From: a bacterium BMS3Abin06
GTDB taxonomy: Bacteria > Nitrospirota > Thermodesulfovibrionia > UBA6902
DNA: 64,000 nucleotides
Assembly: GCA_002897895.1 (NCBI GenBank)
Contig: BDSY01000058.1
Coordinates: 40,109 to 104,108, forward strand
Reading direction: 5' to 3'
The translations under genes and the position numbers were made by a program. This document shows positions 1,400-38,557 of the stretch, in pieces (position 1 is the first letter of the stretch; each line of letters starts with the position of its first letter). A model generated the notes under the pieces. The model searched no databases. It saw only the letters and a list, made by a program, of their open reading frames with translations, and was not told the origin of the DNA.

Positions 1400-1574
1400 C
1401 TATAACAAGGATACTCCTTAATTTAATATGAATCAGACAACTGTCCGGGTCGCCCCCTTTGGAAAAGTCTGCAAACATTGCAACAGAGCCGCTCATAAAT
1501 AACGGTTAGCAGCTTAACTGTTATGTTATTATAACATAACGTTTTTTTAAGAGTAATCAATACAGGAGCATATT

Positions 1575-3470: not shown

Positions 3471-3592
3471 ACTGACATCAGACCTCAATTTTTAGCTGAA
3501 CGAATTGAAGATGAGCTTGAAACCATAAAAGTATAAGTCACTATATCTCATGCAACTCTTCTCTGTTGAATTTTCTTATTTACGCCCTGAAA

Positions 3593-5080
3593 TCAAAAGG
3601 GCAGCTTGACCGGCAGTGATCCTTTAAAATTCCTTTCACCTTTTAAACATTTGATAACAGATACTTGTGCCTGTTTACTTGTATCGTATGCTGCAATGAG
3701 CAAATCCGCCTTCGGGAAATGTCCGAGCACGTAAGGACTCCCAAAGGATATCACGATTGAATTGCGGGAATTTTTTATAAGTTTCCGGATGATATTTATT
3801 TCATCGTCCCTGATACCTGAACTCCCTCCCCATGCAGCGATACTGGTGAAGAGGGCAAAGACGACTGTTTTCCGGAGAGACTCTTTTTCAGAGTCTTTGA
3901 TCCTGATATGTCCGGATATGAAATTTTTCAGAGTGGATAAGTCATGCTTGTTTTCATCAGCGGCAAATGCAAGAGAAAGACCCTGAGTATTTTTGATCGG
4001 CAGCACTCCGGGGGAGTCTTTCACAAGTGTGACGGACTTATCGGAAATTCTTTCGGAAAGCCCGGCATGTTCCTGATAATTAATTCCGGATTTTCGGATA
4101 TTTTTTATCTTTGATTTATATTTCAGAATTCTTTCCACGGCAGTGTCTATCGTCCCCTCATCAATCTTCCCTGATGCAACGGCCTGTTTAAGTTCTTCAA
4201 CAACCGAATCAGCATCTGCCGGATGAAGGAGGATGTCGCCCCCTGCATTTATGCACATTGCCGGGACATTTTCATATTCATTCAGGGCATGCATGTTCAG
4301 CGCATCCGTAAGAACAAGACCTTCATATCCCAAATCCGTTCTTAACAGGCCGGTTATCACTTTTTTTGAAAGAGAGGCAGGAAGTTCATCAATTGCCGGG
4401 ATGCTGAGGTGTCCGGTCATAATACTGCCGGCACCTGCTTTTACGGCTTCCCTGAAGGGGAATATATCCGTATTCATCAGCTCGTCAAAAGATTTGGAAA
4501 TAACGGGGAGGGCTATGTGGGAATCAATGGCTGTGTCGCCGTGTCCGGGGAAATGTTTGGCACAGCTTATCAGCCCTGCATCTTCAATGGTCTTTATGTA
4601 TGTTTTGCCGTACCATGAAACATTTTCCTGATTGTCGGAAAATGCCCTTGTACAGATTATCGGATTGTCGGGATTCCTGTTCACATCCATGACCGGTATG
4701 AGCGGCATATTGATTCCGATATCAATCGCTTCATGAGAAACAGCATTAATTACATCTTCGAGAATTTCCACGTCTGAGGAATTATTTTTATTGATTGCTG
4801 CGGCTACAGCCATCTGGCAGGGGAAATGAGTAGCTCCGTCTATTTGCTGTCCCACGCCCCGCTCTATATCGGATGCAATAAACAGGGGTGTTTCTGATAC
4901 AGACTGAAGTTTATTAATGAAAGTTTTTACTTCATTCCTTTTACCGCCAAACAGGATGAACCCTCCGATACCTTTTCGAACAAGTTCAGAAGCCCGCTCC
5001 TGATACTGAATTGAAGAGAGTTTTTCTCCATCAAGTCTGCTTATGATAAGTTGCCAGAGTTTTTGCTCAAGGCCGGACAT
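3593..5080 (-). CDS. Glycoside hydrolase family 3 protein (NagZ-like beta-N-acetylhexosaminidase / beta-glucosidase-like)
   Basis: KHFPGHGDT motif and GH3 N-terminal fold signature; 495 aa. Its first 144 nt lie inside direct-repeat copy 1. Confidence 0.7.
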   Translation of the reverse strand: MSGLEQKLWQLIISRLDGEKLSSIQYQERASELVRKGIGGFILFGGKRNEVKTFINKLQSVSETPLFIASDIERGVGQQIDGATHFPCQMAVAAAINKNNSSDVEILEDVINAVSHEAIDIGINMPLIPVMDVNRNPDNPIICTRAFSDNQENVSWYGKTYIKTIEDAGLISCAKHFPGHGDTAIDSHIALPVISKSFDELMNTDIFPFREAVKAGAGSIMTGHLSIPAIDELPASLSKKVITGLLRTDLGYEGLVLTDALNMHALNEYENVPAMCINAGGDILLHPADADSVVEELKQAVASGKIDEGTIDTAVERILKYKSKIKNIRKSGINYQEHAGLSERISDKSVTLVKDSPGVLPIKNTQGLSLAFAADENKHDLSTLKNFISGHIRIKDSEKESLRKTVVFALFTSIAAWGGSSGIRDDEINIIRKLIKNSRNSIVISFGSPYVLGHFPKADLLIAAYDTSKQAQVSVIKCLKGERNFKGSLPVKLPF

Positions 5081-5205
5081 AGAACATTATAAACTACTTT
5101 ACTGCTAAAACTCCTTGAGCCGCAGGGCATCTTTTAATGCCGGCAACATCCTTTTTACGCAGGCCCGCCCTTCTTCAATGGCTTCTGACGCCCGATCGAA
5201 TTCGA
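4937..5205. repeat. 269-bp direct repeat, copy 1 (left boundary of island)
   Basis: Identical by eye to 16003..16271. Contains the 5' end of the GH3 gene plus the native patatin/GH3 intergenic junction. Confidence 0.9.
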
Positions 5206-5223
5206 AGCGCACAAAAAAACTCT

Positions 5224-5270
5224 TGACTTTTGGCTTCCAAAAAGTGTATAAGTATAGTATAATATACTTA
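5224..5270 (+). promoter_or_regulatory. Sigma70-like promoter (TTGACT-17-TATAAG) overlapping palindrome TAAGTATA-N6-TATACTTA upstream of the ArsR-family gene
   Basis: -35 at 5224..5229, -10 at 5247..5252, inverted repeat at 5249..5270. This layout is typical of an autoregulated repressor operator. Confidence 0.5.
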
Positions 5271-5280
5271 AGGAGTAAAA

Positions 5281-5676
5281 ATGAAAGTTGAGGCCGAGTC
5301 TTTTAAGGTTCTTTCGGTAGAAACCAGAATAAAGATTATTGAAATGCTAAAGGCAGGGCCACTCCCTGTGAATACAATAACAGAAGCATTAGGGATTAGC
5401 CAATCAGCAGTATCACAGCATCTTCGCGTGCTAAAGCAAGCCGGTTTAGTTACAGACGAAAGAAGAGGTTATCACATCTTCTATTCATTGAATAAAGATA
5501 AACTCGACAAGTACCAACAGGAACTACTAAAGGTCTGCACATGTGGCTGCAAACTTGCCAAGAGAAAACAGATTTCCGAGACAAGAGAGGCGCTGTTAGA
5601 ATATAAAAAAAGACTTGAAAAAGAAATAAAAGATGTGGGAAAAAGAATCAGGGACCTCGAAAAAGCGGCAGGGTAA
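5281..5676 (+). CDS. ArsR/SmtB-family transcriptional regulator with C-terminal CTCGC motif and coiled-coil tail
   Basis: Winged-HTH signature TITEALGISQSAVSQHLRVLKQAGLV, followed by KVCTCGCKL and a charged heptad-like tail. Confidence 0.75.
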   Translation: MKVEAESFKVLSVETRIKIIEMLKAGPLPVNTITEALGISQSAVSQHLRVLKQAGLVTDERRGYHIFYSLNKDKLDKYQQELLKVCTCGCKLAKRKQISETREALLEYKKRLEKEIKDVGKRIRDLEKAAG

Positions 5677-5698
5677 CCTTATATTTTTTCTTTTTAAT

Positions 5699-5722
5699 TT
5701 AAGTATATGCTAATACACTTAA
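5699..5722 (+). promoter_or_regulatory. Palindromic operator-like motif TTAAGT-N12-ACTTAA immediately upstream of the peptide-1 RBS
   Basis: TTAAGTATATGCTAATACACTTAA. The same architecture recurs at 12547..12570. Confidence 0.5.
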
Positions 5723-5734
5723 AGGAGGTGGCCT

Positions 5735-5929
5735 ATGTGCCAGGGGGGCATAGCTATAAGTCTAAAAAATAATAATTGTGGTTGTGAAGCGAAATTTGAG
5801 GAGAGAATTATAGGCAAGGAGGATCTGCTTACACGGTTAAATGAATATAAAAGAAATTTAGAATCGGAACTTGTAATAGTCAATAGCAAGTTAGAATCAG
5901 CGTCTTCCGCCGAGAAAGGAGGTGAGTAA
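5735..5929 (+). CDS. Small protein (64 aa) with NCGCE motif and a coiled-coil tail resembling the ArsR C-terminus
   Basis: Strong SD AAAGGAGGTG. MCQGGIAISLKNNNCGCEAKFEE...LNEYKRNLESEL. Its stop overlaps the SD of the next gene. Confidence 0.5.
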   Translation: MCQGGIAISLKNNNCGCEAKFEERIIGKEDLLTRLNEYKRNLESELVIVNSKLESASSAEKGGE

Positions 5930-5931
5930 GC

Positions 5932-6051
5932 ATGGCAGATACAAAAAAGGATACCAAGAAAAACGGAACATTAGGCAATGTTGTAAAAGAAATTAAGACA
6001 TCTAATTGCGGATGCGGTTGTGGTTGTATCCCTCCGCCATTCAAAAAATAA
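5932..6051 (+). CDS. Cys-Gly-repeat micro-protein (39 aa): MADTKKDTKKNGTLGNVVKEIKTSNCGCGCGCIPPPFKK
   Basis: Perfect SD AAAGGAGGTGA six nt upstream and a strong terminator downstream. A paralogue sits at 12643..12756. It is not in the ORF track because it is too short. Confidence 0.6.
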   Translation: MADTKKDTKKNGTLGNVVKEIKTSNCGCGCGCIPPPFKK

Positions 6052-6060
6052 CAGAGGACT

Positions 6061-6098
6061 TTGTGGGGAAGAGAATTCTCTTCCCCACAAAATTTTTT
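6061..6098 (+). terminator. Rho-independent terminator (15-bp perfect stem TTGTGGGGAAGAGAA/TTCTCTTCCCCACAA followed by a T-run)
   Basis: Read directly from the sequence. It lies between the peptide gene and the MoaD-like gene. Confidence 0.8.
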
Positions 6099-6112
6099 AT
6101 TGAGGAAATAAA

Positions 6113-6385
6113 ATGAAAATTAAACTTTATGCCAATCTGCGTGATATTGTCGGAAAAGATGAATTAGAAATGGAACTAAAAGAACCCGTTTCGCTCATTG
6201 AGTTTTTGAGAAATATTTCTAATGATTATGGAGAAAAAATGAGGAAATTCTTATTCAAAGAAACAAATGAAATTGCAGAATCTCTAATTATATCTATTAA
6301 TGGCGAAGTCATTAAGGAAAATAAATCTATTTTCTTATCAAATAAAGATGAGCTATCAATCTTATTACCTTTAGCGGGGGGATAA
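6113..6385 (+). CDS. MoaD/ThiS-like ubiquitin-fold sulfur-carrier protein (ends in Gly-Gly)
   Basis: 90 aa with a C-terminal ...LLPLAGG. The pattern is MoaD-like. Confidence 0.65.
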   Translation: MKIKLYANLRDIVGKDELEMELKEPVSLIEFLRNISNDYGEKMRKFLFKETNEIAESLIISINGEVIKENKSIFLSNKDELSILLPLAGG

Positions 6386-6661
6386 TTGCAACGGATTGAA
6401 CATGTTATAGCTGAGATTGACCAATGTACAGGCTGTAATATGTGCACGTTAGCCTGTTCCATGGCACAAAAAGGGGCATTTAATCCAAGATACTCTAAGA
6501 TAAAGGTTCATCAAGAATTGATAGGCCTTGTTACAAAGATAGAATTTATTGAACAATGCGATATGAGTCTTTTAAGCCAATGTAATTTGATAGATTCTGA
6601 GCCGCTTTGTACTAAATATTGCATTTTTGATGCAATTAAATTTAAAAAAGTGGAGGATTAA
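6386..6661 (+). CDS. Small Cys-rich 4Fe-4S ferredoxin-like protein
   Basis: CTGCNMCTLAC (CxxCxxCxxxC) plus four further Cys. TTG start directly after the MoaD-like stop. Confidence 0.4.
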   Translation: MQRIEHVIAEIDQCTGCNMCTLACSMAQKGAFNPRYSKIKVHQELIGLVTKIEFIEQCDMSLLSQCNLIDSEPLCTKYCIFDAIKFKKVED

Positions 6662-6662
6662 A

Positions 6663-8006
6663 ATGAGTAATATTTTATTAATACGGCCTCATCCGGTAGT
6701 AGATGATACTAAAAATTTTCCTACCGAATCGCCTCCAATTGGTATAATCTCTCTTGGAAGTTTCCTGCGATCTAAGGGTATGGATGTCAAAGCCATTGAT
6801 TTATGCACTGACCCACAAACAGATATTGTTTCTGAAATCTTAAAAATTAAACCTGATATTGTTGGTATATCATCAATGACTTGCGACTTCCCCTCTGCCT
6901 TGAAAATTGTTGATCAAATCAAGCGACATTTTGATATTCCGACAGTTTTAGGAGGAGCACATCCAACTATATTTCCCAAGGAAGTTCTACAGAATCCCTC
7001 TATAGATTACGTAATAATTGGTGAAGGAGAATATGCCTTTCATGAGCTTATAATCGCGCTTAAGAATGATAAAGCATTCAGTGAAATAGCCTCTTTAGGT
7101 TACAAAGAGAATGGGTCGATTTTTACAAACCCGCGAAGACCATTTATTGATATTAATACTCTGCCCTTCCCTGATTACAGTTTCCTTGATAATGAGAAAT
7201 ACATTGATTTTGGAGAAAGATATCTTGGTTTTAGACACTTAGTAGCTGTTATCAGCAGGGGATGCACTAACAGATGTTCCTTTTGCGCTCAGCATCAGGT
7301 CTGGGGCAACCAGTTTAGATTCTTTTCTCCTGAGAGGGTGGTCTCTGAATTGAAAAGGTTGATGCAGGAATATAATGTTGAAGGCTTTTGGTTTAAGGAT
7401 AGCGTCCTCACAGTTAAAAACTGGACAATTCCATTTTGTGAGGAGATAAGCAGGCAAAAATTGAATGTTAAATGGGCGTGTTTAGCAAGGGTGGATCAGG
7501 TAGATAAAGAACTTATTAAAAGTATGAAGAAAGCCGGTTTAGTAAAATTATGGATAGGTGCAGAATCTGCTTCCGATAGAATTCTTCAGTTACTCAATAA
7601 ATGGATTACAGTGGATCAGACACGAAAAGCTTTTCGTATATGTAAAGACGAGTGTGTTGATACTGCAGCCTTTTTTATGTTTGGCCTCCCAACAGAAACA
7701 GTAGATGAGATGGAGTTAACCTTTGAGTTGATCCGTGAAACGAACCCTAAGCCATTGCATTTGGCAATTTATCACCCATTGCCAGGAACAGAATTGTACG
7801 AAAAATACAATGGGGCAGATGTCATAAAACATGCAAATCCCAGAGAGTTAGTCTTTGACATGGCCTGTATGTCAACAGGACCTGTGAGTAAAGAACTTGT
7901 TCAGGAGATATACGATAGCATTTGTAACTACTTCATCAAGAATGGCTCAAAACCTGACTTTAAAGAATTTAAGAGAATAGCCTCATTTCAGGAAGCGAGG
8001 GTTTAA
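6663..8006 (+). CDS. B12-binding-domain radical SAM enzyme (class B rSAM)
   Basis: N-terminal Rossmann-like B12-binding domain, then CTNRCSFC (CxxxCxxC). No SPASM-type C-terminal Cys cluster is visible. The start is chosen at the ATG after SD GGAGGA rather than the track's 6627. Confidence 0.7.
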   Translation: MSNILLIRPHPVVDDTKNFPTESPPIGIISLGSFLRSKGMDVKAIDLCTDPQTDIVSEILKIKPDIVGISSMTCDFPSALKIVDQIKRHFDIPTVLGGAHPTIFPKEVLQNPSIDYVIIGEGEYAFHELIIALKNDKAFSEIASLGYKENGSIFTNPRRPFIDINTLPFPDYSFLDNEKYIDFGERYLGFRHLVAVISRGCTNRCSFCAQHQVWGNQFRFFSPERVVSELKRLMQEYNVEGFWFKDSVLTVKNWTIPFCEEISRQKLNVKWACLARVDQVDKELIKSMKKAGLVKLWIGAESASDRILQLLNKWITVDQTRKAFRICKDECVDTAAFFMFGLPTETVDEMELTFELIRETNPKPLHLAIYHPLPGTELYEKYNGADVIKHANPRELVFDMACMSTGPVSKELVQEIYDSICNYFIKNGSKPDFKEFKRIASFQEARV

Positions 8007-9875
8007 TTGCTATACGGATATGCAGGAAAGATTCTCAGGATTAACCTAACAACATCCAAAATTACCAAAGAAGATATTCCAGAAGATTTCTACCAAAAGT
8101 ACCTCGGTGGTAATGGTTTTGGTGCACGACTACTTTATACAGAGCTGAAACCTAAAATAGATCCACTGAGCAGTGAAAATATTCTCATATTTGCAACAGG
8201 TCCTCTGAACGGCGCCATGATTCCAATGGCATCAAAGCTTTGTGCAATCTCAAAATCTCCTTTAACAGGAACATTTATGGATGGATTCTGCAGCGGGAGG
8301 ATTGGTTCTGAACTGAAATATGCCGGTTATGACATCCTTGTGATAGAGGGTAAGGCTGATAAGCCTGTCTATCTATTTGTCGATGATGACATTATTCAAT
8401 TAAGAGACGGAATGTCCCTATGGGGAAAAGATACATTTACAACCCAAATAATGATAAAGAACGAGTTAAAAGACGAAAGCGTTCAAGTTGCCTGTATTGG
8501 CCCGGCAGGTGAAAATTTGGTAAGGTATGCCTGCATTATAACAGAACAAAGGGCTGTTGGAAGTGGCGGGTTGGGCGCTGTCATGGGGTCTAAGAATCTA
8601 AAGGCAATAGCAGTTCGTGGGAGTAAGTTAGTCTCTGTATTTAACACTGCTAAATTAGAGCAATTTGTTCAACGGATAATAGTAAAGATCAAAGAAGAGC
8701 CAGCAGCTCAAGTTCTTTCAAAATACGGCACTGCGGTAGTTACGTCGGTTTTGCAATATATTGGAGGACTTCCAACGAAAAACTGGCAGTCAGGTATATT
8801 CCCGGATAGTAAGGCGCTTTCGGCAGAAACACTTGTCGATAAATATACACAGAAAAACTTATCATGTTTTGCCTGTATGATCCCATGTGGACATTATTCT
8901 GTCGTTAAAGAAGGCCCATATAAAGGGGCGATTACTAATGGTCCGGAATTTCAAAGCATAGGCGTTTTTGGCCCATTGACTGGAAATAAAAGATTGGATG
9001 CAATTATCATGGCCGATAGACTTTGCGATGAATACGGCTTAGGACAGATATCGGCAGGGGTTTGTATATCTTTTGCCATGGAATGTTTTGAGCGAGGACT
9101 TATTACCAAGAAAGATACCGATGGGATAGAGTTGAGATTTGGCAATCATGAAGCAATGATAAAGATGCTTAGAAAGATAACTTACAGGGAAGGGATAGGG
9201 GATATTCTTGCCGAAGGGGTTAAAAGGGCATCAGCTATTTTAGGAAGAGGTACAGAAAGATATGCCATCCATGTAAAAGGGATGGAGATGGCATGCTTCT
9301 GTCCCCGGGTTTTAAAGACACAGGCCTTTGGTTTTGTTGTCTCCTCAAAAGGACCAAGCCACAATGAAGTGCGTATTACAGCAGAATTGGGAAGATTAAT
9401 TCCTAATGACTTAAAGAACGGCTTAGGCTATTTGGCTAAAGAACTGATGGATTGGAGTGCAATAGCCAATTCATTAATTTGGTGTCTTAGTGCTGAAAGG
9501 ATTTTGGATATAAAATTATCCGAAGAAGTAGTAGAGATGCTCAACTTTACGACGGGAATGGATTTTGATAAAACAGAATTAGTTAAGATCGCTGAAAGGA
9601 TTCACAATTTGGAGCGTGCATTCAATATCAGGGAGGGTTTTAGCAAGCAGGATGATGTGCTTCCAAAAAGATTTCTGAAAGAGGCAATTCCGGAAGGACC
9701 TGCAAAGGGTCTGAAAATAAACAAAAAAATACTCAATGCAACTATCGATGAATACTATGCTGCCAGGGGGTGGGATAAAGGAGGCAGACCTACTATGAAT
9801 AAACTTTTAGAACTCGGATTAGAGGATGTAATGGTATATATAAATGATGAGGAGAGAATGCCTGCAGGAAAATGA
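8007..9875 (+). CDS. aor: Aldehyde:ferredoxin oxidoreductase family (tungsto-/molybdo-pterin) enzyme
   Basis: AOR N-terminal signature MLYGYAGKILRINL...LGGNGFGARLLY; 622 aa. TTG start abuts the rSAM stop. Confidence 0.8.
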   Translation: MLYGYAGKILRINLTTSKITKEDIPEDFYQKYLGGNGFGARLLYTELKPKIDPLSSENILIFATGPLNGAMIPMASKLCAISKSPLTGTFMDGFCSGRIGSELKYAGYDILVIEGKADKPVYLFVDDDIIQLRDGMSLWGKDTFTTQIMIKNELKDESVQVACIGPAGENLVRYACIITEQRAVGSGGLGAVMGSKNLKAIAVRGSKLVSVFNTAKLEQFVQRIIVKIKEEPAAQVLSKYGTAVVTSVLQYIGGLPTKNWQSGIFPDSKALSAETLVDKYTQKNLSCFACMIPCGHYSVVKEGPYKGAITNGPEFQSIGVFGPLTGNKRLDAIIMADRLCDEYGLGQISAGVCISFAMECFERGLITKKDTDGIELRFGNHEAMIKMLRKITYREGIGDILAEGVKRASAILGRGTERYAIHVKGMEMACFCPRVLKTQAFGFVVSSKGPSHNEVRITAELGRLIPNDLKNGLGYLAKELMDWSAIANSLIWCLSAERILDIKLSEEVVEMLNFTTGMDFDKTELVKIAERIHNLERAFNIREGFSKQDDVLPKRFLKEAIPEGPAKGLKINKKILNATIDEYYAARGWDKGGRPTMNKLLELGLEDVMVYINDEERMPAGK

Positions 9876-9926
9876 AAAGAAATTATTGTACATAACAGCT
9901 TTATCAATTGAATGAGGTAAAAAATT

Positions 9927-10943
9927 ATGAATAACAGATTTTTCTCAACCCAAAAAGGCCACACAAAATTATGGATAACAATTGGAATAATTGTTCTTTT
10001 TCTGATTGCTATGGGCTTATTTATATTTTCAAACAAAAAACCTGCTGATGAAATAATTATAGGTTATAGTGCATTACGCATAAGCCTTCCTGTCTTTGCT
10101 GCAAAAGAAAAAGCTTATTTTGCCGGAGAAGGTTTGAATGTTAAATTAGTAAGGTTTGACACTGCTCAACCTTTAATGACTTCTCTTGTTGCCGGCAGCG
10201 TCCGGATAGCCGGTTATACGGCCTTGCCAATAACTTATAATGCCATGCTCAGAAGTAAAACAGATCTGTATTTTGTTACAGCAATGCTTGAAGACCAAAA
10301 ACATAGAATAAGTTATCTGATTGTTCCCAAAGATACTCCGGATACTTTTACGATTGCTGAGTTAAAAGGCAAAAAGATTGGTATTCTTCCAACAGTTGCA
10401 TACAGGGCATGGTTAGAAGAAATACTGAAATTTAACGAAGTAGATCCTTCAGATGTTAAAATTGTGCAAATTACTCCGGCTCTTACTCCTTCCGCATTAG
10501 AATCCGGTCAAGTTAATGCACTCTTTACTAATGATCCTGCTGCTACAACAATTCTACAACGAGGAATCGGTAGATTGCTTAGTAAAGAAGTTGAAGTTCC
10601 AAAAATATTTGGAGAGCAATTTGTTTTTGGCAGCTTTAATATTAGAAAAGACTTTGCAGACAGCAATCCTGAGATAGCAGCAAAAATAGTTAGGGCATTA
10701 GATAAGGCAGTAACATTTGTTAATAACAATCCGGATGAAGCAAAACGGATAATGAAGAAATATTTACATGAATTACAAAAACCTTTTGTGGATTTCTACC
10801 CGGATGCCCTTTATCAAACCACTACAGAAGTTGATCCTGAAAAATTCCAGGATATTGCAGATAAATATTTAGAAATTGGAATAATCCAGAAGCCATTAAA
10901 GGTTGAGCATTTGGTTATTTCCGAAAAAATTTTTTTAAAATGA
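9927..10943 (+). CDS. ABC transporter substrate-binding protein, NitT/TauT (SsuA/TauA/ThiY-like) family
   Basis: N-terminal signal/anchor followed by an NMT1-like fold pattern. Confidence 0.6.
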   Translation: MNNRFFSTQKGHTKLWITIGIIVLFLIAMGLFIFSNKKPADEIIIGYSALRISLPVFAAKEKAYFAGEGLNVKLVRFDTAQPLMTSLVAGSVRIAGYTALPITYNAMLRSKTDLYFVTAMLEDQKHRISYLIVPKDTPDTFTIAELKGKKIGILPTVAYRAWLEEILKFNEVDPSDVKIVQITPALTPSALESGQVNALFTNDPAATTILQRGIGRLLSKEVEVPKIFGEQFVFGSFNIRKDFADSNPEIAAKIVRALDKAVTFVNNNPDEAKRIMKKYLHELQKPFVDFYPDALYQTTTEVDPEKFQDIADKYLEIGIIQKPLKVEHLVISEKIFLK

Positions 10944-10947
10944 AAGC

Positions 10948-11667
10948 ATGATTGAAATAAAAAATCTTAAAAAGAAATTTTTTTGCAATGGCAGCAATAA
11001 ATCCTTGTTTTCCGGATTTGATTTAGTAATCAGAAAAAGCGAGAAGATTGGACTTTTCGCACCAAATGGAAGTGGAAAAAGCACTCTTTTAAATATTTTA
11101 GCAGGAGTTGATAAAGATTTTGCCGGCACGGTTTCTATAGAAGGGAAACGTATAAGCTATATGCACCAGGACACTAATGCAACCTTAGCTCCCTGGTTTA
11201 CTTGTGAAAAGAATATTTTGCTTGTAAGGAAATATCATCACTTAGGCATTGAAAAAGGGAAAGCTTTACTTAAACGGTTTGTTAATGAAATAGAAATCAA
11301 CTTTTCTTTAGACCAATATCCTTTTATGCTTAGTGGCGGCCAGAGACAAATAGTTGCACTTCTGCGGGCATTGATATTTGAACCGGATGTTTTATTATTG
11401 GATGAGCCTTTCTCTGCTCTTGACATTGAAAAACGAGCTGCTTTTATAGAGTTTTTAACAAAACACTTCACTAATAATCTTACAGTAATAATGTGCTCTC
11501 ATAGAGGGGATGAGGTTAAATCATTGCTTGACAGAGCTGTAATTCTAGAACATCAGTCAGAAACAAGGATTACGATGGATATTTGTCGTTCCAAGTTCCA
11601 CTCTAAACAAGAATTTGAACAGATTATCTCTAAAATCAGATTTAAGAAAAACGGACATGAAATATAA
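10948..11667 (+). CDS. ABC transporter ATP-binding protein (NitT/TauT family)
   Basis: Walker A GSGKST, signature LSGGQRQ, Walker B LLLDEP. Confidence 0.8.
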   Translation: MIEIKNLKKKFFCNGSNKSLFSGFDLVIRKSEKIGLFAPNGSGKSTLLNILAGVDKDFAGTVSIEGKRISYMHQDTNATLAPWFTCEKNILLVRKYHHLGIEKGKALLKRFVNEIEINFSLDQYPFMLSGGQRQIVALLRALIFEPDVLLLDEPFSALDIEKRAAFIEFLTKHFTNNLTVIMCSHRGDEVKSLLDRAVILEHQSETRITMDICRSKFHSKQEFEQIISKIRFKKNGHEI

Positions 11668-12403
11668 GACCTCACTTATAGGGATTTTTTCGGCGGTTAC
11701 TATCTGGCAAATCATTGCCTGGTTAAAAATATTCAATCCAATTTATTTTGCCTCGCCCTATGAAGTAATTGCTGAATCAATCAAAATGATTCAGGGAGGC
11801 GCTGTTTTCATAGACCTTACACTCACTATTTACAGAATAGCTGTCAGTGTTATTATATCCTCACTTATTGGCATACCTCTTGGCATTGCCTTTGGTTATT
11901 TTGCTCGTATCTATAAATATGTCGGCGAAATAGTGGATTTCCTGCGTTCAATCCCGCCAATTGTAATTTATCCATTGCTCCTTATTGTCTTGGGACCCGG
12001 AGATAGTTCAAGAATAGGCGTTGCTCTTTTTGGCTCAATAGTTGTTTTGGTTCTTATTATTTCTAACGGGTTATTTCAACAAGCGCCATTGAGAAGACAA
12101 TATTTTGCATCTCTTGGAGCCAATAAGGTTCAGCTCGTAAACCACATTGTCTGGTATGAAGCGCTGCCTCATGTTATGGTCGCTTTAAGAACAGCAGTAT
12201 CCCTATCCATTATTATTATAGTGGTTACAGAAATGCTTGTTGGCGCACAATATGGTTTGGGGACAAGGGTACAGAACGTTCAAATTACCAGCAACATTCC
12301 CGATTTATTTGTCACTATCATTATTATTGGTTTAATTGGTGTTTTATTTAATAAAACCTTAATCTGTCTTGATAAGAAGCTTGTTTTTTGGAAATCTAAT
12401 TGA
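11657..12403 (+). CDS. ABC transporter permease (binding-protein-dependent inner-membrane component)
   Basis: Hydrophobic throughout. The start is set at the ATG overlapping the ATPase stop. Confidence 0.7.
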   Translation: MKYKTSLIGIFSAVTIWQIIAWLKIFNPIYFASPYEVIAESIKMIQGGAVFIDLTLTIYRIAVSVIISSLIGIPLGIAFGYFARIYKYVGEIVDFLRSIPPIVIYPLLLIVLGPGDSSRIGVALFGSIVVLVLIISNGLFQQAPLRRQYFASLGANKVQLVNHIVWYEALPHVMVALRTAVSLSIIIIVVTEMLVGAQYGLGTRVQNVQITSNIPDLFVTIIIIGLIGVLFNKTLICLDKKLVFWKSN

Positions 12404-12546
12404 TAAATTTATTGTGGAGACTTTCTTATAAAAGTTTGTATGCTTCGCAGAATTTTGCAAAACTCAGAAAGAAAAATTTGCTCTAATTTACATGATATTG
12501 ATGAAAGAGATAAGAAGGGGTAAATAATTTTAATTTCGCTTTGTAT

Positions 12547-12570
12547 TTAAGTATATGCTTATTAACTTAA
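12547..12570 (+). promoter_or_regulatory. Second copy of the operator-like palindrome TTAAGT-N12-ACTTAA
   Basis: TTAAGTATATGCTTATTAACTTAA, about 70 nt upstream of the third peptide gene. Confidence 0.5.
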
Positions 12571-12642
12571 TTACATTAGGGTTATTTTGCTGAGGAGAAG
12601 ACATTTTTTGATGCATAATCCACAGAAAGGAGGTGATAAAAA

Positions 12643-12756
12643 ATGGCTGACAAAAGCAAAAAGAAGTCTTGTGGCTGTGGATGCGATATGCTGAAGCAAT
12701 CTAGCCGCAAAGCCGCAAAAGACGAGAAAGAGTCAAAAGTCATAAGTAAGAAGTAG
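12643..12756 (+). CDS. Cys-Gly-repeat micro-protein (37 aa): MADKSKKKSCGCGCDMLKQSSRKAAKDEKESKVISKK
   Basis: Same SD AAAGGAGGTGA and MAD-K-rich N-terminus plus CGCGC core as 5932..6051. Not in the ORF track. Confidence 0.55.
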   Translation: MADKSKKKSCGCGCDMLKQSSRKAAKDEKESKVISKK

Positions 12757-12854
12757 TCAGACTCGGCCTCACCAAAAGGGGGTAGGTTCAGAAATCGCTT
12801 GCCCCCTTAACTCCAATAATATTCTAATATTACGATTCAATAAAGGAGGAAATA

Positions 12855-13991
12855 ATGAAAAAATTAAATATTGAAGAAATTAGAGAACTATCCGAGAAGC
12901 TTGCATCTGAGAAATTGGCGCCACGTGCCGCAGAGATTGATCAGAACCGTACCTTTCCCTGGGAGAACATTCGAGCACTTGGAGAAGCTGGTTTCCTTGA
13001 GTTGATCATTTCTGAGGACAACGGTGGCTTAGGATTTGGGCGAGTCTGCTTTGCTTCGGTTGCAGAGGAGATAGCTAAGGCCTGCGCTTCCACCGCTCTT
13101 ATATATGTTTCTCACTCAATCGTGACAAAGGCGATAGAACTTGCAGGTAGCGAGGCTGCAAAGAAGAACTGGTTAACTAAAATGTTAACAGGACAATCGC
13201 TTGGAGCGTTCGCTGTCCACGAGCCTGACTCCGGCAGCAACTCCGGAGCCATCACCACATTGGCAAAGAAGGAAGGCGATCACTATATCGTAAATGGTTC
13301 AAAATTTTTCATTACTTCAGCCGGGGAGGCCGACTTCTACCTGGTCCTCGTCAGGACTGACCCGGAAAAGGGGCCTCAGGGTATGAGCACATTGCTCATT
13401 GAAAAAAACACTCCCGGTCTTTCCTTCGGTCAACACGAAGATAAGATGGGTCTGACAAGTACTTCCTCAAGGGAGATGTTTTTCAGCGATTGCCTTGTAC
13501 CGAAGGAAAATCTGATAGGCAATGAAGGTGAGGGAACACAGGTTATTGGGAAAACTGTAGTTGGTTTGGGGTTCTTCGGAGCTGCCGCGATATCTGTCGG
13601 AATCGCAAGATCAGCCACTGAACTTGCAATCAAACATGCCAAGGAAAGAGCCATAGCAGGACAACCCATTGCCGTTCATCAAGCCGTTCAGTTCATGATC
13701 ACGGACATGATTCTTGGGAATGAAGCCGCAGAAGCATTTCTCAAAGTATGTGCTGCAAGAGCTGACTCAACTCAAGGCGCTGCCGTTATTAATGGGTTTA
13801 AGGCTAAGCTTTTAGCCTCTGAGATGGCTGTGGATGTTACAAACAAGGCAATCCAGGTTATGGGTGGTCATGGATACTGCCGGGATTATATAGTTGAAAG
13901 GCTTTTTCGCGACGCCCGGGGATTGACGCTTCACTTCAAAACTTCCGAGTGGCTTCGACAGGATATTGCCAAGGCAGCATTGGGATTGTAA
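12855..13991 (+). CDS. Acyl-CoA dehydrogenase
   Basis: ACAD fold pattern; 378 aa; good SD. Confidence 0.8.
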   Translation: MKKLNIEEIRELSEKLASEKLAPRAAEIDQNRTFPWENIRALGEAGFLELIISEDNGGLGFGRVCFASVAEEIAKACASTALIYVSHSIVTKAIELAGSEAAKKNWLTKMLTGQSLGAFAVHEPDSGSNSGAITTLAKKEGDHYIVNGSKFFITSAGEADFYLVLVRTDPEKGPQGMSTLLIEKNTPGLSFGQHEDKMGLTSTSSREMFFSDCLVPKENLIGNEGEGTQVIGKTVVGLGFFGAAAISVGIARSATELAIKHAKERAIAGQPIAVHQAVQFMITDMILGNEAAEAFLKVCAARADSTQGAAVINGFKAKLLASEMAVDVTNKAIQVMGGHGYCRDYIVERLFRDARGLTLHFKTSEWLRQDIAKAALGL

Positions 13992-14016
13992 AAGCACAGG
14001 CAGGTCAACACACTAT

Positions 14017-14396
14017 CGAGCGGTGAAAGACAGAGGGCATGGCGCTTGCTCAAAAACCCCGGATACTTTTACTTGATGAGCCGATGACCTTTCTGGACAT
14101 TCATCACCAGTTCGAGATAATGGAGTTGTTGCAGAGACTCCAGAAGACTCCAGAAGGGTCTTGACATTACAGTAATCATGGTCATCCATGACCTGAACCA
14201 TGTGGCAAGGTTCAGCCACAGGGTAATTGCGCTGAAACATGGCCGTGTAATCAAGGATGGGTATCCACATGAAGTAATAACCGAGGATATCCTGAGAGAT
14301 GTTTTTGGAGTGAAGGCAAAGGTAATGGTAATGGCATTTAAGGATCATCATAATCGTGATTTCACTTTATGTTTCCCCTGTGGGGTCTGTAAGTAA
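14017..14396 (+). pseudogene. 5'-truncated, frameshifted remnant of a FecE/BtuD-type (iron-siderophore/cobalamin class) ABC ATPase
   Basis: ALAQKPRILLLDEP...LQRLQK then a frame change to ...LDITVIMVIHDLNHVARFSHRVIALKHGRVI. The frameshift coincides with a 10-bp tandem duplication AGACTCCAGA at 14135..14154. Walker A and signature regions are absent. Confidence 0.7.
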
Positions 14397-14411
14397 GCGG
14401 GAAGTGAAAAA

Positions 14412-15254
14412 ATGATCAGGACAGAAAATTTAACAAAGTATTACGGCAGTAAATGCGCTGTCAATTCGGTCTCCTTCAATATCAGGAAAGGAGAAGTCTT
14501 CGCGCTGCTCGGTCCTAACGGGGCCGGTAAGACAACAACCATTAAGATGCTGACCACCCTGAGCAGGCCTACAGAAGGAAAGATATTCATTAATAATCTT
14601 GATGTGGTAGTCGATCAGTTAAAGGTCAAGAGGCTGGTGGCCGTTGTGCCGCAGGTGGGAAACTTTGACAGGGAGCTTTCAGTATATGAAAACATGCTTG
14701 TTTACGGGATGCTTTATGGAGTAAAGGAGCCCGGACCGAAGATAGAAAAAAATCTTGATGCTTTAGGGCTGCTGAAAGAGAGAGATACCATTGCAGAGGT
14801 CCTTTCGGGCGGCATGCAGAGGAGGCTCCTTATTGCAAAAGCGCTCTTATCGGAGCCCGATGTCCTGTTCCTTGATGAACCAACAGTAGGACTTGATCCC
14901 CATGTGAGAAGGGAGATCTGGGACATTATCAGGAACATACGGAACAATGGGAAGACAATTCTGATGACCACCCACTATATCGAAGAGGCAGAGATGCTTT
15001 GTGATAGGATCGGTATCCTGTCTCATGGAAGCCTGATCGCAATAGATACTCCAGGGAACTTGAAGGACAACATAGGCAGATATGTTGTAGAAATTCCATC
15101 ATCCAATGGCAGCGGAAGGACTGAGCGTGTCATATGCAGAGACAGGGCTGAGGCGGAAGAGACCGCCCGAAGGTCTGACAACAGAGTTGTGATCAGGCCT
15201 GCAAATCTGGAAGACGTATTTATTCAACTGACAGGGGAGATGGTCGAGGGATGA
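14412..15254 (+). CDS. ABC-2 type exporter ATP-binding protein
   Basis: GPNGAGKTT, LSGGMQRRL and LFLDEPT motifs. Confidence 0.8.
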   Translation: MIRTENLTKYYGSKCAVNSVSFNIRKGEVFALLGPNGAGKTTTIKMLTTLSRPTEGKIFINNLDVVVDQLKVKRLVAVVPQVGNFDRELSVYENMLVYGMLYGVKEPGPKIEKNLDALGLLKERDTIAEVLSGGMQRRLLIAKALLSEPDVLFLDEPTVGLDPHVRREIWDIIRNIRNNGKTILMTTHYIEEAEMLCDRIGILSHGSLIAIDTPGNLKDNIGRYVVEIPSSNGSGRTERVICRDRAEAEETARRSDNRVVIRPANLEDVFIQLTGEMVEG

Positions 15255-15988
15255 ACTGGTACCCGGTATTTTACAGGGAGATGCTGCTCTTTAAGAAAAA
15301 GCTCTGTAAGCTTGGTTATGTCTTTTCATCTCTATTGTTCCCGGTGCTCTATCTGGTGGCATTTGGCATGGGGCTTGGCAGAAGGGTAAATATTGAGGGA
15401 ACGGGTTATATAGAGTTTCTTATTCCGGGCATAGCCGCCATGACCTCGATGACAAATTCATATAACCTTGTTTCAAACTCTTTAAGTATGGGCAGGCTTT
15501 TTTTTAAGAGCTTTCAGGTTGTTATCCAGTCACCTCTGCCGCATTTCTCGATCATGACAGGAATAGTGTTTTCGGGGATTGTGAAGGGAGCACTTGCATC
15601 TGCAGTTATTGTCCTCGCGGGCTTGATAATATTCAGGGCCTTTCCATTCAGTCTTGTCTCTTTTCTTGGGCTTTTATTAAACCTGATATTGTTCTCCTCT
15701 ATGGGTGTAGTCGCAGGGCTGCTTATAAGGTACCCTGAAGATAATGCTATTTATACCAACTTCTTTATAATGCCGATGGCATTCTTCTCGGGTACATTCT
15801 TTCCTGTAGACAATCTGCCGGCAGCGGTAAAAGGCATAATCATGTTTTTACCGCTGCACTACACCAACATTCTGATAAGAAGCGATGAACTGAGCAAGGA
15901 GGTGATTCTGCCGATATCAGTATTACTTGCAGTTTCGATAACACTATTTTTATGCGGAGCAAAACTGATTAAAAATTACAGTGAATAA
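15251..15988 (+). CDS. ABC-2 type exporter permease
   Basis: Six-TM-like hydrophobic protein; overlaps the ATPase stop by 4 nt. Confidence 0.7.
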   Translation: MNWYPVFYREMLLFKKKLCKLGYVFSSLLFPVLYLVAFGMGLGRRVNIEGTGYIEFLIPGIAAMTSMTNSYNLVSNSLSMGRLFFKSFQVVIQSPLPHFSIMTGIVFSGIVKGALASAVIVLAGLIIFRAFPFSLVSFLGLLLNLILFSSMGVVAGLLIRYPEDNAIYTNFFIMPMAFFSGTFFPVDNLPAAVKGIIMFLPLHYTNILIRSDELSKEVILPISVLLAVSITLFLCGAKLIKNYSE

Positions 15989-16002
15989 TTTCGGGCGTTA
16001 TC

Positions 16003-16271
16003 CCTTTTACCGCCAAACAGGATGAACCCTCCGATACCTTTTCGAACAAGTTCAGAAGCCCGCTCCTGATACTGAATTGAAGAGAGTTTTTCTCCATCAA
16101 GTCTGCTTATGATAAGTTGCCAGAGTTTTTGCTCAAGGCCGGACATAGAACATTATAAACTACTTTACTGCTAAAACTCCTTGAGCCGCAGGGCATCTTT
16201 TAATGCCGGCAACATCCTTTTTACGCAGGCCCGCCCTTCTTCAATGGCTTCTGACGCCCGATCGAATTCGA
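16003..16271. repeat. 269-bp direct repeat, copy 2 (right boundary of island)
   Basis: Identical to 4937..5205. It carries an orphan 5' fragment of the GH3 gene on the minus strand (16003..16146) and supplies the last ~33 codons of the patatin gene. Confidence 0.9.
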
Positions 16272-17136: not shown

Positions 17137-17198
17137 GCATAAATCGATAATAAATTATCAACTGGATTGCGCGGCAAATCTGTAATATAATCCTTTAT

Positions 17199-17891: not shown

Positions 17892-18004
17892 CAATCATGT
17901 TGCGTCAATACAGTTCTGGGTAAGTATTTGATTTGCAATCAGCAGTGAATTTTTGATAAATAAATAATAACGATACCGACGGAAACGAGGGATTTAAATA
18001 GATA

Positions 18005-19027: not shown

Positions 19028-19032
19028 AAGGT

Positions 19033-19503: not shown

Positions 19504-19549
19504 TTTAACCGGAGAAGGCCTGAAAAGCGCTGAAATTATCAGATAACGG

Positions 19550-37722: not shown

Positions 37723-37840
37723 ACAGAACACTGAAAGGACAATTTCAGCAGCCTGTCAGGGGCTGATCCCGTTCAGTCTCCGTTGGATATTATGTTGATA
37801 TTTGAAATGGTTCTTATAGCATGCATTCTCGTCGCAGGTA
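37723..37840. repeat. 118-bp direct repeat copy A (diverged duplicate of the promoter and 5' end of the gene at 38500)
   Basis: 111/118 identical to 38440..38557. Encodes a truncated MDIMLIFEMVLIACILVAG... Confidence 0.8.
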
Positions 37841-37915
37841 CTCGTCAGACGTTTAGCCTTAAGGAATAAATGTTGAAACAATCTGATACTATTACTGATA
37901 TAATGATAAAATAAT

Positions 37916-38158
37916 ATGAAAGCAACAGAATATTTCAAATACATTCGAAAAAGGCCGGATAGGAGTATTATTAAAGATGAATGGATTGAGAAGGTTATCA
38001 ACTATCCATTGAAAGAGGAAATTCAATCAGATGGAAGAATCAGGAGATGGGCAAAAATAGAAGAAATGGACGGAAGAGCATTGAGGGTTATATTGTTAAG
38101 TGATGGAGAAACTGTTCATAATACATTTTTCGATAGATCATTCAAGGAGGATCGATAA
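37916..38158 (+). CDS. DUF4258-like small protein (putative toxin)
   Basis: 80 aa with a ...GRALRVILLSDGETVHNTFFDR tail. Confidence 0.45.
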   Translation: MKATEYFKYIRKRPDRSIIKDEWIEKVINYPLKEEIQSDGRIRRWAKIEEMDGRALRVILLSDGETVHNTFFDRSFKEDR

Positions 38159-38365
38159 ATGAAAATAAAATATTTTTCCGATACAGATACGGCATTATTG
38201 GAATTTTCTGAGAATGAAGTATACGAAACAAAAGAAATAAATGAAAATATATACATTGACCTGGGCAAGGATGGCAAGTTAATAAGTATGACAATAGAAC
38301 ACGCTAAAGAGCAGGCAACAATAAAAGAGTTCTCCTATCAGGAAATTGAGAAAGAAATTGCATGA
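38159..38365 (+). CDS. DUF2283-like small protein (putative antitoxin)
   Basis: MKIKYFSDTDTALLEFSENEV... has a typical DUF2283 start. Its start abuts the previous stop. Confidence 0.5.
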   Translation: MKIKYFSDTDTALLEFSENEVYETKEINENIYIDLGKDGKLISMTIEHAKEQATIKEFSYQEIEKEIA

Positions 38366-38439
38366 CTGGATAACAAGACAGTTGTTATCTTCCCAATTAA
38401 ACCAACTCAAAGAATAATCCAATCGTCAGTGGGGGCGCC

Positions 38440-38557
38440 ACAGAACACTGAAAGGACAATTTCAACAGCCTGTCAAGGGCTGATCCCGTTCAGTCTCCCT
38501 TGGATATTATGTTAATATTTGAAATCGTTCTTATAGCTTGCATCCTCGTCGCAGGTA
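38440..38557. repeat. 118-bp direct repeat copy B (native 5' region of the methyltransferase gene)
   Basis: See copy A. Confidence 0.8.

Follow-up and report, generated by a model that had tools for sequence, protein, structure and literature searches.

Island X, a gene cluster located between a patatin gene and a glycoside hydrolase family 3 (GH3) gene, was analysed in a 64,000-nt stretch of DNA (the window) from an uncultured deep-sea Nitrospirae bacterium. On balance, X appears to be an integrase-free, strain-variable cluster that entered the patatin-GH3 junction by one illegitimate, recombinase-independent insertion, which duplicated 272 nt of the target.

The duplicated patatin-GH3 junction

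The insertion is bounded by two direct repeat copies. Indeed, the segments 4937-5205 and 16003-16271 are identical at 269 of 269 positions by MAFFT, direct-repeat search and BLAST, as a first, sequence-only reading of the window had claimed, and the full repeat extends to 272 nt, with one mismatch at its edge (T at 4936 vs C at 16002). The starts of the two copies lie 11,066 nt apart, and the span between the copies is 10,794 nt. Identity of such length cannot have arisen by chance. In each copy, the 3' end of patatin is joined through a 24-nt spacer to GH3 codons 1-49, thus leaving both genes intact, and the content attributed to the copies by the sequence-only reading matches the annotated coordinates:

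3593-5080, minus strand: GH3 gene (NagZ/YbbD-like), intact, left flank of the insertion (Pfam PF00933, E = 1.7e-73)
4934-5205: left repeat copy (B_L), with codons 1-49 of the intact GH3 gene (4934-5080, minus strand), the 24-nt spacer (5081-5104) and a 101-nt patatin 3' fragment (5105-5205)
5206-5212: junction J1, a 7-nt filler (AGCGCAC) between the repeat and the segment common to the nif-context copies of X in sister genomes
5213-15999, all genes on the plus strand: island X, common to the nif-context copies at 98.2-99.8% identity, with ends taken from BLAST
16000-16271: right repeat copy (B_R), with a truncated GH3 5' fragment (16000-16146), the 24-nt spacer and the true patatin 3' end (16171-16271)
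16171-17136, minus strand: patatin-like phospholipase gene (RssA-like), intact, right flank (Pfam PF01734; NCBIfam RssA, 291 bits, above cut-off)

The GH3 protein of the window is identical to P0122, recorded as 'MAG TPA [Nitrospirae bacterium]', while the patatin start is placed at 17109 by other gene callers. Apart from the 272-nt repeat, the 64 kb have just one long direct repeat, a 118-nt pair at 37723/38440.

Empty site and strain variability

Comparison with relatives shows the ancestral state to be patatin-24 nt-GH3, in line with the earlier proposal that the patatin gene formerly ran straight into the GH3 gene. A search for the empty site with a single repeat copy found it in contig L004, whose flanks are 100% identical to window positions 1-5205 and 16003-20089 (5205 + 4087 nt; 9.3 kb), and the outgroup L043, 81% identical, is empty with the same patatin-24 nt-GH3 order. 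The occupied form is seen in the window contig and in GCA_011050745.1, and it accounts for five of the six contigs with an identical patatin gene; within the population, the empty allele is represented by a single contig at 12.9x, from a sample that also holds X-like sequence. X is thus a strain-variable (flexible) island, present or absent between near-identical strains with conserved flanks.

It is very unlikely that these two forms reflect an assembly artefact, with the chromosome always empty and X a separate circular or strain-specific molecule, or with the empty contig produced by mis-traversal of the repeat. In favour of an artefact, one project's short-read metagenomes supplied all the long contigs, the repeat (269 nt) is longer than k, MEGAHIT k127 contigs stop exactly 127 nt into it, and the empty contig is of low coverage. 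A circle made of X and one repeat, together with an empty chromosome, would yield an assembly graph no different from that of integrated X, and integration therefore rests on paired-end repeat resolution by SPAdes. Such resolution, however, would not choose an unsupported path, and both junctions (J1 and J2, on the left and right) are spanned by ERZ1742235 NODE_12 (54x) and by GCA_011050745.1, which were differently assembled and are unlike in tandem-repeat count, while at least J2 is found within a third contig, at 338x. J1 and J2 are also present in MEGAHIT and Logan contigs of several runs, including the unrelated run SRR7787742, which contains J1. Moreover, the outgroup is independently empty, and the truncated gene fragments and an ancestral base at the repeat edge are biological signatures rather than assembler products.

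Composition and cargo of the island

X is compositionally mosaic. The GC content is 37% for 5206-12800 and 46% for 12801-15999, compared with 43% for the rest of the window, and the same two-part pattern is found at gene level: genes in the left part have a GC of 37.2% and a GC3 of 31.7%, those in the right part 46.1% and 48.7%, and the flank genes 44.0% and 44.1%. This shift, together with an alternative site in sister genomes, is the kind of atypical composition or sign of foreign origin expected of a flexible island, and along with the lack of a recombinase it bears out the earlier description of the region as an accessory island. The cargo predicted from the sequence alone (a regulator, micro-peptides, a redox and radical-SAM module, two transporters and a gene remnant) was recovered by Pfam and NCBIfam; both transporters are of the ABC type, and the remnant is an ABC-ATPase upstream of 14412. 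Functions are given as predicted from domain matches only:

5249-5270: palindromic operator-like site TAAGTATA-N6-TATACTTA, overlapping the arsR promoter (0 expected by chance)
5281-5676, plus strand: ArsR/SmtB-family metalloregulator with a C-terminal CTCGC motif (Pfam HTH_5; NCBIfam NF033788, 92.8 bits, above cut-off)
5735-6051, plus strand: two small Cys-rich ORFs, of 64 aa with a CGC motif (5735-5929) and of 39 aa with CGCGCGC (5932-6051)
6113-9875, plus strand: redox module of four genes (Pfam; NCBIfam matches other than moaD_arch below equivalog cut-offs)
6113-6385, plus strand: MoaD/ThiS-like (Pfam; NCBIfam moaD_arch above cut-off)
6386-6661, plus strand: ferredoxin-like (Pfam)
6627-8006, plus strand: B12-binding radical SAM (Pfam)
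8007-9875, plus strand: aldehyde:ferredoxin oxidoreductase family, tungsten-type (Pfam)
9927-12403, plus strand: SsuA/TauA-type ABC importer, with substrate-binding protein, ATPase and permease (Pfam NMT1, ABC_tran, BPD_transp_1; NCBIfam SsuA_fam below cut-off)
12643-12756, plus strand: third Cys-rich micro-peptide gene, 37 aa with a CGCGC motif (from sequence)
12855-13991, plus strand: acyl-CoA dehydrogenase (Pfam)
13993-15999, plus strand: ABC-2 exporter module, with an ABC-ATPase C-terminal remnant (~13993-14411), ATPase (14412-15254) and permease (15251-15988) (Pfam, BLAST)

Sites related to the operator-like palindrome are present at 5700-5721 and ~12549-12570, each upstream of a micro-peptide gene; the latter was spotted by eye and has 2 mismatches. 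All three Cys-rich ORFs are called as genes in ENA assemblies and none has a Pfam match, and a strong terminator hairpin (6060-6091) lies downstream of the first two. Collectively, the ArsR-type repressor, the three operator-like palindromes, the micro-peptides, the tungsten-type aldehyde oxidoreductase with its MoaD, ferredoxin and B12-radical-SAM helpers, the importer, the acyl-CoA dehydrogenase and the exporter appear to form a self-contained unit, which would be portable between sites because it carries its own regulation.

An older direct repeat has its left copy in the last 121 nt of the acyl-CoA dehydrogenase gene (13872-13992); by BLAST, the right copy (95.9% identical) exists in the nif-context genomes alone, where it lies downstream of the ABC-2 genes. 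In the nif context, the ABC-2 module is an earlier insertion, nested between the 121-nt repeats.

As the sequence-only reading had stated, no integrase or transposase is encoded. In particular, Pfam and NCBIfam searches of all ORFs in 5206-15999 and of the neighbouring genes out to 21088 returned no integrase, excisionase, relaxase, transposase or any recombinase domain. Terminal inverted repeats of X are absent, the best end-to-end inverted alignment being that expected from shuffled sequence; inverted repeats of at least 40 nt and viral-contig matches were not found, and the 64 kb contain no tRNA or tmRNA.

A second site in the nif operon

In sister genomes, X is found at 98-99.8% identity between nifK and nifEN, where relatives have a contiguous nifHDK-nifEN; contigs L015 and L016 show the nifEN|ArsR boundary and L024 the ABC-2|nifK boundary. 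Homology of these copies to the window covers exactly 5213-15999, and past the right end of X they continue with 30 nt and the 121-nt copy of the acyl-CoA dehydrogenase 3' end. The copies of X diverge in a mosaic of blocks with 0% and 3-6% difference. A candidate source copy of the inserted segment is present elsewhere, in these nif-context copies (98.2-99.8% identity). The 272-nt repeat is absent from and around X at the nif site, and the nif insertion site has no sequence in common with it; the repeat therefore comes from the target and not from the element.

These features make it hardly credible that X is a site-specific island or integrative element whose repeats are attL and attR and whose integrase is encoded elsewhere. 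Such an element would account for the direct-repeat flanks, the strain-variable accessory cargo and the precise empty site, but X and its adjacent genes lack integrase, excisionase, relaxase and transposase, no tRNA is present, the repeat is bordered by a 7-nt filler and by imprecise joins, and the second site shares no sequence with the repeat. This reading is largely refuted.

The presence of X at a second locus in related genomes would also fit a tandem duplication joined at X-right|repeat-left and followed by a deletion from the right end of the repeat to X-left, which would leave repeat-X-repeat and a second X in the same chromosome. Both junctions are illegitimate, as the end points of a duplication and a deletion would be. 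This route is nevertheless improbable: it would take two separate illegitimate events, each with exact end points, and the island unitig of run DRR093005 (11,051 nt) enters the repeat by 127 nt on both sides, so that the sample contains no identical second X with other flanks.

Junctions and age of the insertion

Both junctions look like non-homologous, illegitimate joins. No template was identified for the filler at J1, and J2 lies at a possible TTCAT microhomology with one base missing. The same filler is found in L025, a lineage ~8-10% diverged (GH3 protein identity 90%), which has the same left junction with substitutions on both sides of it; L025, on which the age argument depends, is a single 4.9x contig that ends in an Illumina adapter and contains an internal 8-kb deletion junction, itself possibly chimeric.

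The repeat copies carry further information on age. The C at 16002 is the ancestral allele, part of an Asp49 codon in 8/8 relatives, while the T at 4936 is derived and gives GH3 Asn49; alleles derived in the window lineage at 5054, 5055, 5117 and 5121 are present in both copies. Taken together, the left junction in L025, the ancestral edge base and the four shared derived substitutions point to an old insertion, common to a lineage ~8-10% diverged, and to copies that were probably homogenised or re-made by homologous recombination. The earlier suggestion that perfect identity indicates a recent event is thus not sustained, as the identity would reflect recombination rather than recency.

Proposed mechanism

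As a single event, the insertion would be most economically explained by template switching or break repair that copied X in. A 3' end would depart from the home locus at 5205, copy or join X with the addition of the 7-nt filler, and re-enter the home locus 272 nt behind the departure point, at the TTCAT microhomology, so that 272 nt would be synthesised twice. Afterwards, RecA-type homologous recombination would have acted on the repeat copies: gene conversion, pop-out with re-integration, or both would preserve the 269-nt identity, with only the outermost base escaping, and a crossover between the copies would remove X exactly, thus accounting for the isogenic empty-site strain. Since the J2 microhomology is imprecise and the J1 filler has no identified template, template switching, staggered-break end-joining and Campbell integration of a pre-formed circle are not told apart by the junctions.

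The last of these, in which a circle with X and one 272-nt copy of the junction integrates by a single homologous crossover to give repeat-X-repeat with both genes intact, is a possible but doubtful origin. It would explain the exact insertion-duplication architecture, with one intact and one truncated gene end at each copy, it needs no integrase, and it fits the 269-nt identity and the 100% match of the flanks to the empty strain, which continues as far as the repeat. Recombination of a donor-borne with a recipient repeat would also be compatible with the ancestral edge base of the right copy. On the other hand, more steps are needed than for direct insertion, because two illegitimate joins, linking X with a 272-nt piece of the chromosome, must take place before a circle exists. 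In addition, X stands at the nif site without a repeat copy, the circle junction X-right/repeat/X-left is in none of the retrieved contigs, and X has no replication functions. The Campbell model may well apply not to the origin but to what came later, re-integration or spread between strains. Thus, of the sequence-only proposal of Campbell-type integration or resolution of a tandem duplication, the part on origin is made doubtful by the repeat-free nif copy and two illegitimate junctions, the insertion-duplication architecture is borne out, and pop-out and re-integration through the repeat are a good candidate for present-day loss and regain of the island.

A second repeat-flanked insert

One illegitimate insertion with target duplication, the reading preferred here for X, has parallels in two further insertions with target duplications of 118-122 nt, namely the 121-nt ABC-2 repeat and the pair at 37723. 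The latter had been put forward as a second example of the same architecture at 37723-38557 and is real:

37723-37844 and 38440-38561: direct-repeat pair, 118-122 nt, 94% identity

The duplicated sequence comprises the promoter of a methyltransferase-like gene (38500-39069) along with its 5' end, and the insert of ~595 nt holds a two-gene toxin-antitoxin-like pair (37916-38158; DUF2283 gene 38159-38365). No empty-site variant of this insert was found.

Comparison with known systems

X differs from transposons and insertion sequences, having no transposase and no terminal inverted repeats, and its 272-nt duplication is, as first argued from the sequence, too long for a transposase target-site duplication (2-15 bp). 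With integrase-dependent islands, ICEs and prophages bounded by attL/attR it shares strain-variable cargo, direct-repeat bounds and a precise empty site in relatives. Unlike them, it has no integrase, excisionase or tRNA target, its repeat is a duplicated gene junction and not a short att core, neither a tRNA/tmRNA nor a conserved site with an element-borne core was found, and the same cargo occupies an unrelated second site without repeats.

Closer in architecture are the Campbell insertion-duplications of suicide or integrated plasmids, in which the insert lies between two direct copies of a single contiguous stretch of chromosome, each copy adjoins one intact and one truncated gene end, and the copies can undergo homologous recombination to give back the original site exactly. 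X differs in having no plasmid backbone or replication function, no repeat at its other site and no circular form in the retrieved contigs, and in its filler and imprecise repeat edges.

In microhomology or template-switch rearrangements of the MMBIR/FoSTeS type, a segment from elsewhere is inserted and the sequence behind the re-entry point is duplicated, with fillers of a few nucleotides, imprecise microhomology, truncated genes at the fragment ends and no dedicated enzyme. These events, like illegitimate or homology-facilitated illegitimate recombination, have been recorded mainly in eukaryotes and in laboratory selections of E. coli and Salmonella. To judge by its junction sequences, X may resemble them in these respects, but what resulted here is an old, fixed insert of 10.8 kb kept in a natural population.

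Finally, X resembles flexible or 'minimal mobile element'-type islands in its presence or absence in near-identical strains, the mosaic divergence of its cargo and the lack of self-mobility genes. Such islands normally have no duplicated target, whereas the 272-nt duplication around X would provide an extra intramolecular route to its loss and possibly to its regain.

The repeat and the cargo of the island

The 10.8-kb island X is bounded by a direct repeat whose copies, at 4937-5205 and 16003-16271, are equal at 269/269 positions and free of gaps, as found consistently by alignment, repeat search and BLAST. This agrees with the sequence-only reading, which had described a perfect 269-bp repeat duplicating a patatin/GH3 gene junction. 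The full homology spans 272 nt (4934-5205 and 16000-16271) and includes a single mismatch, 4936 T versus 16002 C. Each copy links 101 nt of the 3' end of the patatin-like gene, across a spacer of 24 nt, to the initial 147 nt of GH3, and thus contains a truncated piece of the opposite gene, namely a patatin fragment on the left and a GH3 fragment on the right. Upon self-BLAST of the whole window, the one other long direct repeat was a 118-nt pair at 37723/38440.

Features of X and its flanks (functions within X from domain scans, except for the small Cys-rich ORFs)
3593-5080, minus strand, GH3 gene, whole at the left repeat copy
5281-5676, plus strand, ArsR/SmtB regulator
5735-5929 and 5932-6051, plus strand, two small Cys-rich ORFs
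6113-9875, plus strand, MoaD/ThiS-like, ferredoxin-like, B12-binding radical-SAM and aldehyde:ferredoxin-oxidoreductase-family (AOR) genes
9927-12403, plus strand, SsuA/TauA-type ABC importer
12643-12756, plus strand, third Cys-rich small ORF
12855-13991, plus strand, acyl-CoA dehydrogenase (ACAD)
13993-15988, plus strand, ABC-ATPase remnant and ABC-2 exporter pair
16171-17136, minus strand, patatin-like gene, whole at the right repeat copy

All genes in 5206-15999 lie on the plus strand. The domain scans confirm the gene content proposed earlier as well as the lack of integrase and transposase: no recombinase, transposase, relaxase or replication domain was found in any ORF of X. In addition, no tRNA is present within the 64-kb window, and Rfam and tRNA scans gave no att-type targets or riboswitches in X, the sole match being a distant TPP riboswitch (42999-43101, + strand) that passes the Rfam gathering score at 66 bits. 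An end-to-end test for terminal inverted repeats of X scored at chance level. Neither the AOR protein nor the exact sequence of the left junction (J1) matched viral contigs, so that these searches give no phage link for X. Among the matches listed, the AOR protein found two sequences in genome contigs, both archaeal (40-45% identity) and neither a close relative, and GH3 found in metagenome contigs one truncated 61% match and two irrelevant ones.

X is a mosaic in composition. Indeed, the comparison of insert and flanks that had been suggested earlier distinguishes a left part low in GC and GC3 (37.2% and 31.7% for the genes at 5281-12403) from a higher right part (46.1% and 48.7% at 12855-15988), the flanks being at 44.0% and 44.1%. 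GC and GC3 alone set X apart; tetranucleotide correlation does not. A candidate operator palindrome, TAAGTATA-N6-TATACTTA, for which 0 chance matches are expected, overlaps the arsR promoter and is repeated upstream of two micro-peptide genes, and its recurrence suggests that X is a self-contained regulon. CGC motifs are found in all three micro-peptides, none of which has a Pfam family: CGCGCGC in the ORF of 39 aa, CGCGC in that of 37 aa and CGC in that of 64 aa. An operator-like palindrome lies ahead of each CGC-peptide gene, and CTCGC occurs at the ArsR C-terminus (window 5530-5560). The three may represent a metal- or metalloid-binding set under ArsR control. Directly 3' of the second micro-peptide gene, a perfect GC-rich hairpin of 14-16 bp (6060-6091), with T-runs on both strands, could work as a bidirectional terminator or attenuator between the peptide genes and the MoaD-AOR operon.

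Empty and occupied forms of the patatin/GH3 site

An exact-protein look-up retrieved the empty site on L004 (ERZ1742238 NODE_1145), a 26-kb contig of the same project at 12.9x, in which patatin is followed by 24 nt and then GH3, with the repeat in single copy. L004 and the window agree at every position of 1-5205 and 16003-20089 (100% identity), and all 65 differences lie past 20090, where gene content diverges between the strains. Patatin-24 nt-GH3 is also found in the outgroup L043 (GCA_054043685.1; GH3 81% identical). This makes the single-copy junction the ancestral state and the window the form with the insertion, in line with the earlier proposal of an insertion into once-contiguous patatin and GH3 genes. 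The empty state of L004 is either a recent pop-out or a recipient type for re-integration. The region from 20090 is a second variable region, just 4 kb from X. There, the N-terminal half of a sigma-54 activator gene (window 20090-21116) is ~6% diverged from L004, the adjoining 4 kb being identical; past this gene, the window has LeuA and phospholipid synthesis genes and L004 (1-4908) a radical-SAM/SPASM-methyltransferase and a B12-radical-SAM gene.

As for the occupied form, both junctions are present on the window contig (identical to ERZ1742235 NODE_12, 54x) and on DRFC01000017.1 of GCA_011050745.1, which are separate assemblies since an 8-nt tandem repeat differs in copy number between NODE_12 and DRFC01000017.1. 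The right junction (J2), at least, is spanned by a 338x contig from ERZ1742237, Logan contigs from unrelated runs (SRR7787742) also contain J1, and the site is occupied in 5/6 contigs with identical patatin. MEGAHIT k127 contigs end exactly 127 nt inside the repeat and the X unitig measures 11,051 nt (10,797 + 2x127), the pattern given by a true repeat whose length exceeds k. A circular molecule of X plus repeat alongside an empty chromosome would yield an identical de Bruijn graph, a caveat by which the integration of X depends on the paired-end resolution of the assemblers. The tandem array itself (unit TAACTCTT, ~13 copies, window 23397-23500) differs in length by 72 nt between GCA_011050745.1 and ERZ1742235 NODE_12, and represents either a hypervariable or an assembly-unstable locus.

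A second home in the nif operon

ArsR and ABC-2 look-ups recovered X at 98.2-99.8% identity on further contigs with other flanks: a nifEN-like gene lies on the left, with nifX-like, two P-II and ferredoxin genes after it (L013-L017), and nifK, nifD and nifH lie on the right (L024). In relatives whose NifK is 88% identical, the order nifH-D-K-EN-X-PII-PII-Fer4 is contiguous (compare L039 and L040), and X was thus inserted at the nif site too, antisense between nifK and nifEN. The nif-context X is located at L015:1-4781 and L024:1640-5700 (GCA_011040095.1), where nifEN is a fused gene. Homology between the window and the nif-context copies runs exactly from 5213 to 15999. No part of the 272-nt repeat is present at the nif site, indicating that the repeat comes from the patatin/GH3 target and not from the mobile unit. 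No target duplication is detectable around X at the nif site, where the nifK-nifEN spacer of the relatives is too diverged to set the insertion boundaries.

Junctions and origin of the insertion

At J1, 7 nt (AGCGCAC, 5206-5212) match neither partner. At J2, where the source reads GTTCATAAG, GH3 CTTCATTCC and the window GTTATCCC, an imprecise join at a TTCAT microhomology is possible. From their sequences, J1 and J2 are both read as illegitimate joins, neither site-specific nor homologous. The favoured origin, which we infer, is a one-step duplicative insertion of X by template switching or break repair, in which re-entry 272 nt behind the exit point would have duplicated the target. An alternative that needs the same two illegitimate joins is end-joining at a break whose ends are far staggered. 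The sequence-only reading had proposed Campbell-type integration of a circle or the resolution of a tandem duplication. Each of these needs two illegitimate joins and additional steps, and integration of a pre-formed circle is a less likely origin; Campbell-type recombination is nevertheless the best candidate for the present-day loss and regain of X.

Age of the insertion and probable homogenisation of the repeat

Perfect identity of the copies had been taken as a sign of a recent event or of an island that can still excise, and the recency did not hold. L025, a diverged lineage (GH3 90% identical in protein and ~92% in DNA, with another gene beyond GH3), shares J1 down to the 7-nt filler, to either side of which there are substitutions. 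If the duplication predates the L025 split, ~7 differences should separate the copies, and there are none. The shared J1 and the missing differences are most simply read as an old insertion whose repeat copies have stayed identical through homologous recombination. When variable repeat sites were polarised by the outgroup, the derived bases of the window lineage at 5054, 5055, 5117 and 5121 were found in both copies, and such substitutions indicate concerted evolution. At the outermost repeat position, the left copy has the derived T (GH3 Asn49), as in L004, and the right copy the ancestral C (Asp49 in 8/8 relatives). Gene conversion, or excision and re-integration via the repeat, would homogenise the copies and leave this edge base out of reach. 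The divergence between X and the nif copies is mosaic, with 0% blocks alternating with 3-6% blocks, which shows that such recombination is frequent in the population.

The age argument rests on L025, a contig of 4.9x coverage with an adapter tail. Its right half, in which window 5366 is joined to 13409 at a CACTCCC(G/T)GT microhomology (L025:4040-4090) and nifK follows, was rejected as an unreliable GH3-X-nifK arrangement, as the contig has 4.9x coverage and an adapter end, and this 8-kb deletion junction lies at a 7-10-nt microhomology of the sort typical of chimeras. The Illumina adapter end (AGATCGGAAGAGCACACGTCTGAACTCCAGTCAC, L025:6982-7026) and the junction point to untrimmed adapters, and possibly chimeric reads, in that public assembly.

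Further long duplications

Other long duplications
13872-13992 (L024:1670-1790), 121-nt duplication of the ACAD 3' end, flanking the ABC-2 module in nif-context genomes
37723-37844 / 38440-38561, repeat pair copying the promoter and 5' end of a methyltransferase-like gene

Past 15999, the nif-context sequence continues for 30 nt and then enters a copy of the ACAD 3' end that is 95.9% identical. This duplication at both sides marks the ABC-2 module as an older insertion in its own right; the first gene of the module is a truncated ABC-ATPase gene (an ORF of 117 aa in the comparison contig L026 and of 72 aa in the window). X in the window is without the right 121-nt copy, and is thus derived by truncation from a nif-type arrangement or from a common source. 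The second, older example that had been placed at 37723..38557 was also recovered, as a pair 94% identical that encloses ~595 nt with a two-gene toxin-antitoxin-like cassette (an 80-aa ORF and a DUF2283 protein); a look-up found no empty-site variant of it. The surrounding 36.5-39.9 kb form a toxin-antitoxin gene cluster (HEPN/nucleotidyltransferase, PIN).

One lineage therefore holds three insertions with 118-272-nt target duplications, namely X, the ABC-2 module and the toxin-antitoxin pair. It is improbable, in our estimate, that they reflect a recurrent pathway, recombinase-independent or run by an unrecognised enzyme, that would paste cassettes of 0.6-10.8 kb, duplicate 120-270 nt of target and leave 'homology handles' for RecA-reversible excision and re-integration. 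If true, it would be a mode of mobility without element-encoded machinery; if recurrent and mechanistically specific, the architecture would add a route overlooked by integrase/tRNA-based island finders. For X itself, the data establish a duplicated target, no element-encoded machinery, illegitimate joins, a second insertion site and an exact empty allele.

Organism and significance

An NCBI protein with the label 'MAG TPA [Nitrospirae bacterium]' has the same sequence as the GH3 of the window, and the closest NifK and GH3 relatives come from MAGs assigned to Nitrospirae, Nitrospirota or Thermodesulfovibrionales. A study of massive sulfide deposits in the deep sea (PMC11427306) cites the source metagenomes (PRJDB5792). 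The window also contains a CRISPR array (60524-61692) with a 36-nt repeat in 17 copies (GTCGCAATCCCTTTTTCATCAGGTCTTCTTTGATTC) and spacers of ~31-35 nt.

X provides a clean natural case of how a large metabolic gene cluster can move and stay removable without mobile-element machinery. A long target duplication from an illegitimate insertion becomes a built-in handle for homologous recombination, and perfect repeat identity is an unreliable clock. Moreover, one accessory module has alternative chromosomal homes within one uncultured deep-sea sulfide-deposit population, and its nif location splits the nitrogenase operon in sister strains. The literature search returned nothing directly relevant on integrase-less islands with long repeats or on a 'TsoR' regulator. 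All in all, X is a real, well-bounded, integrase-free and strain-variable island, and belongs as a variant with the known phenomena of islands and insertion-duplication.
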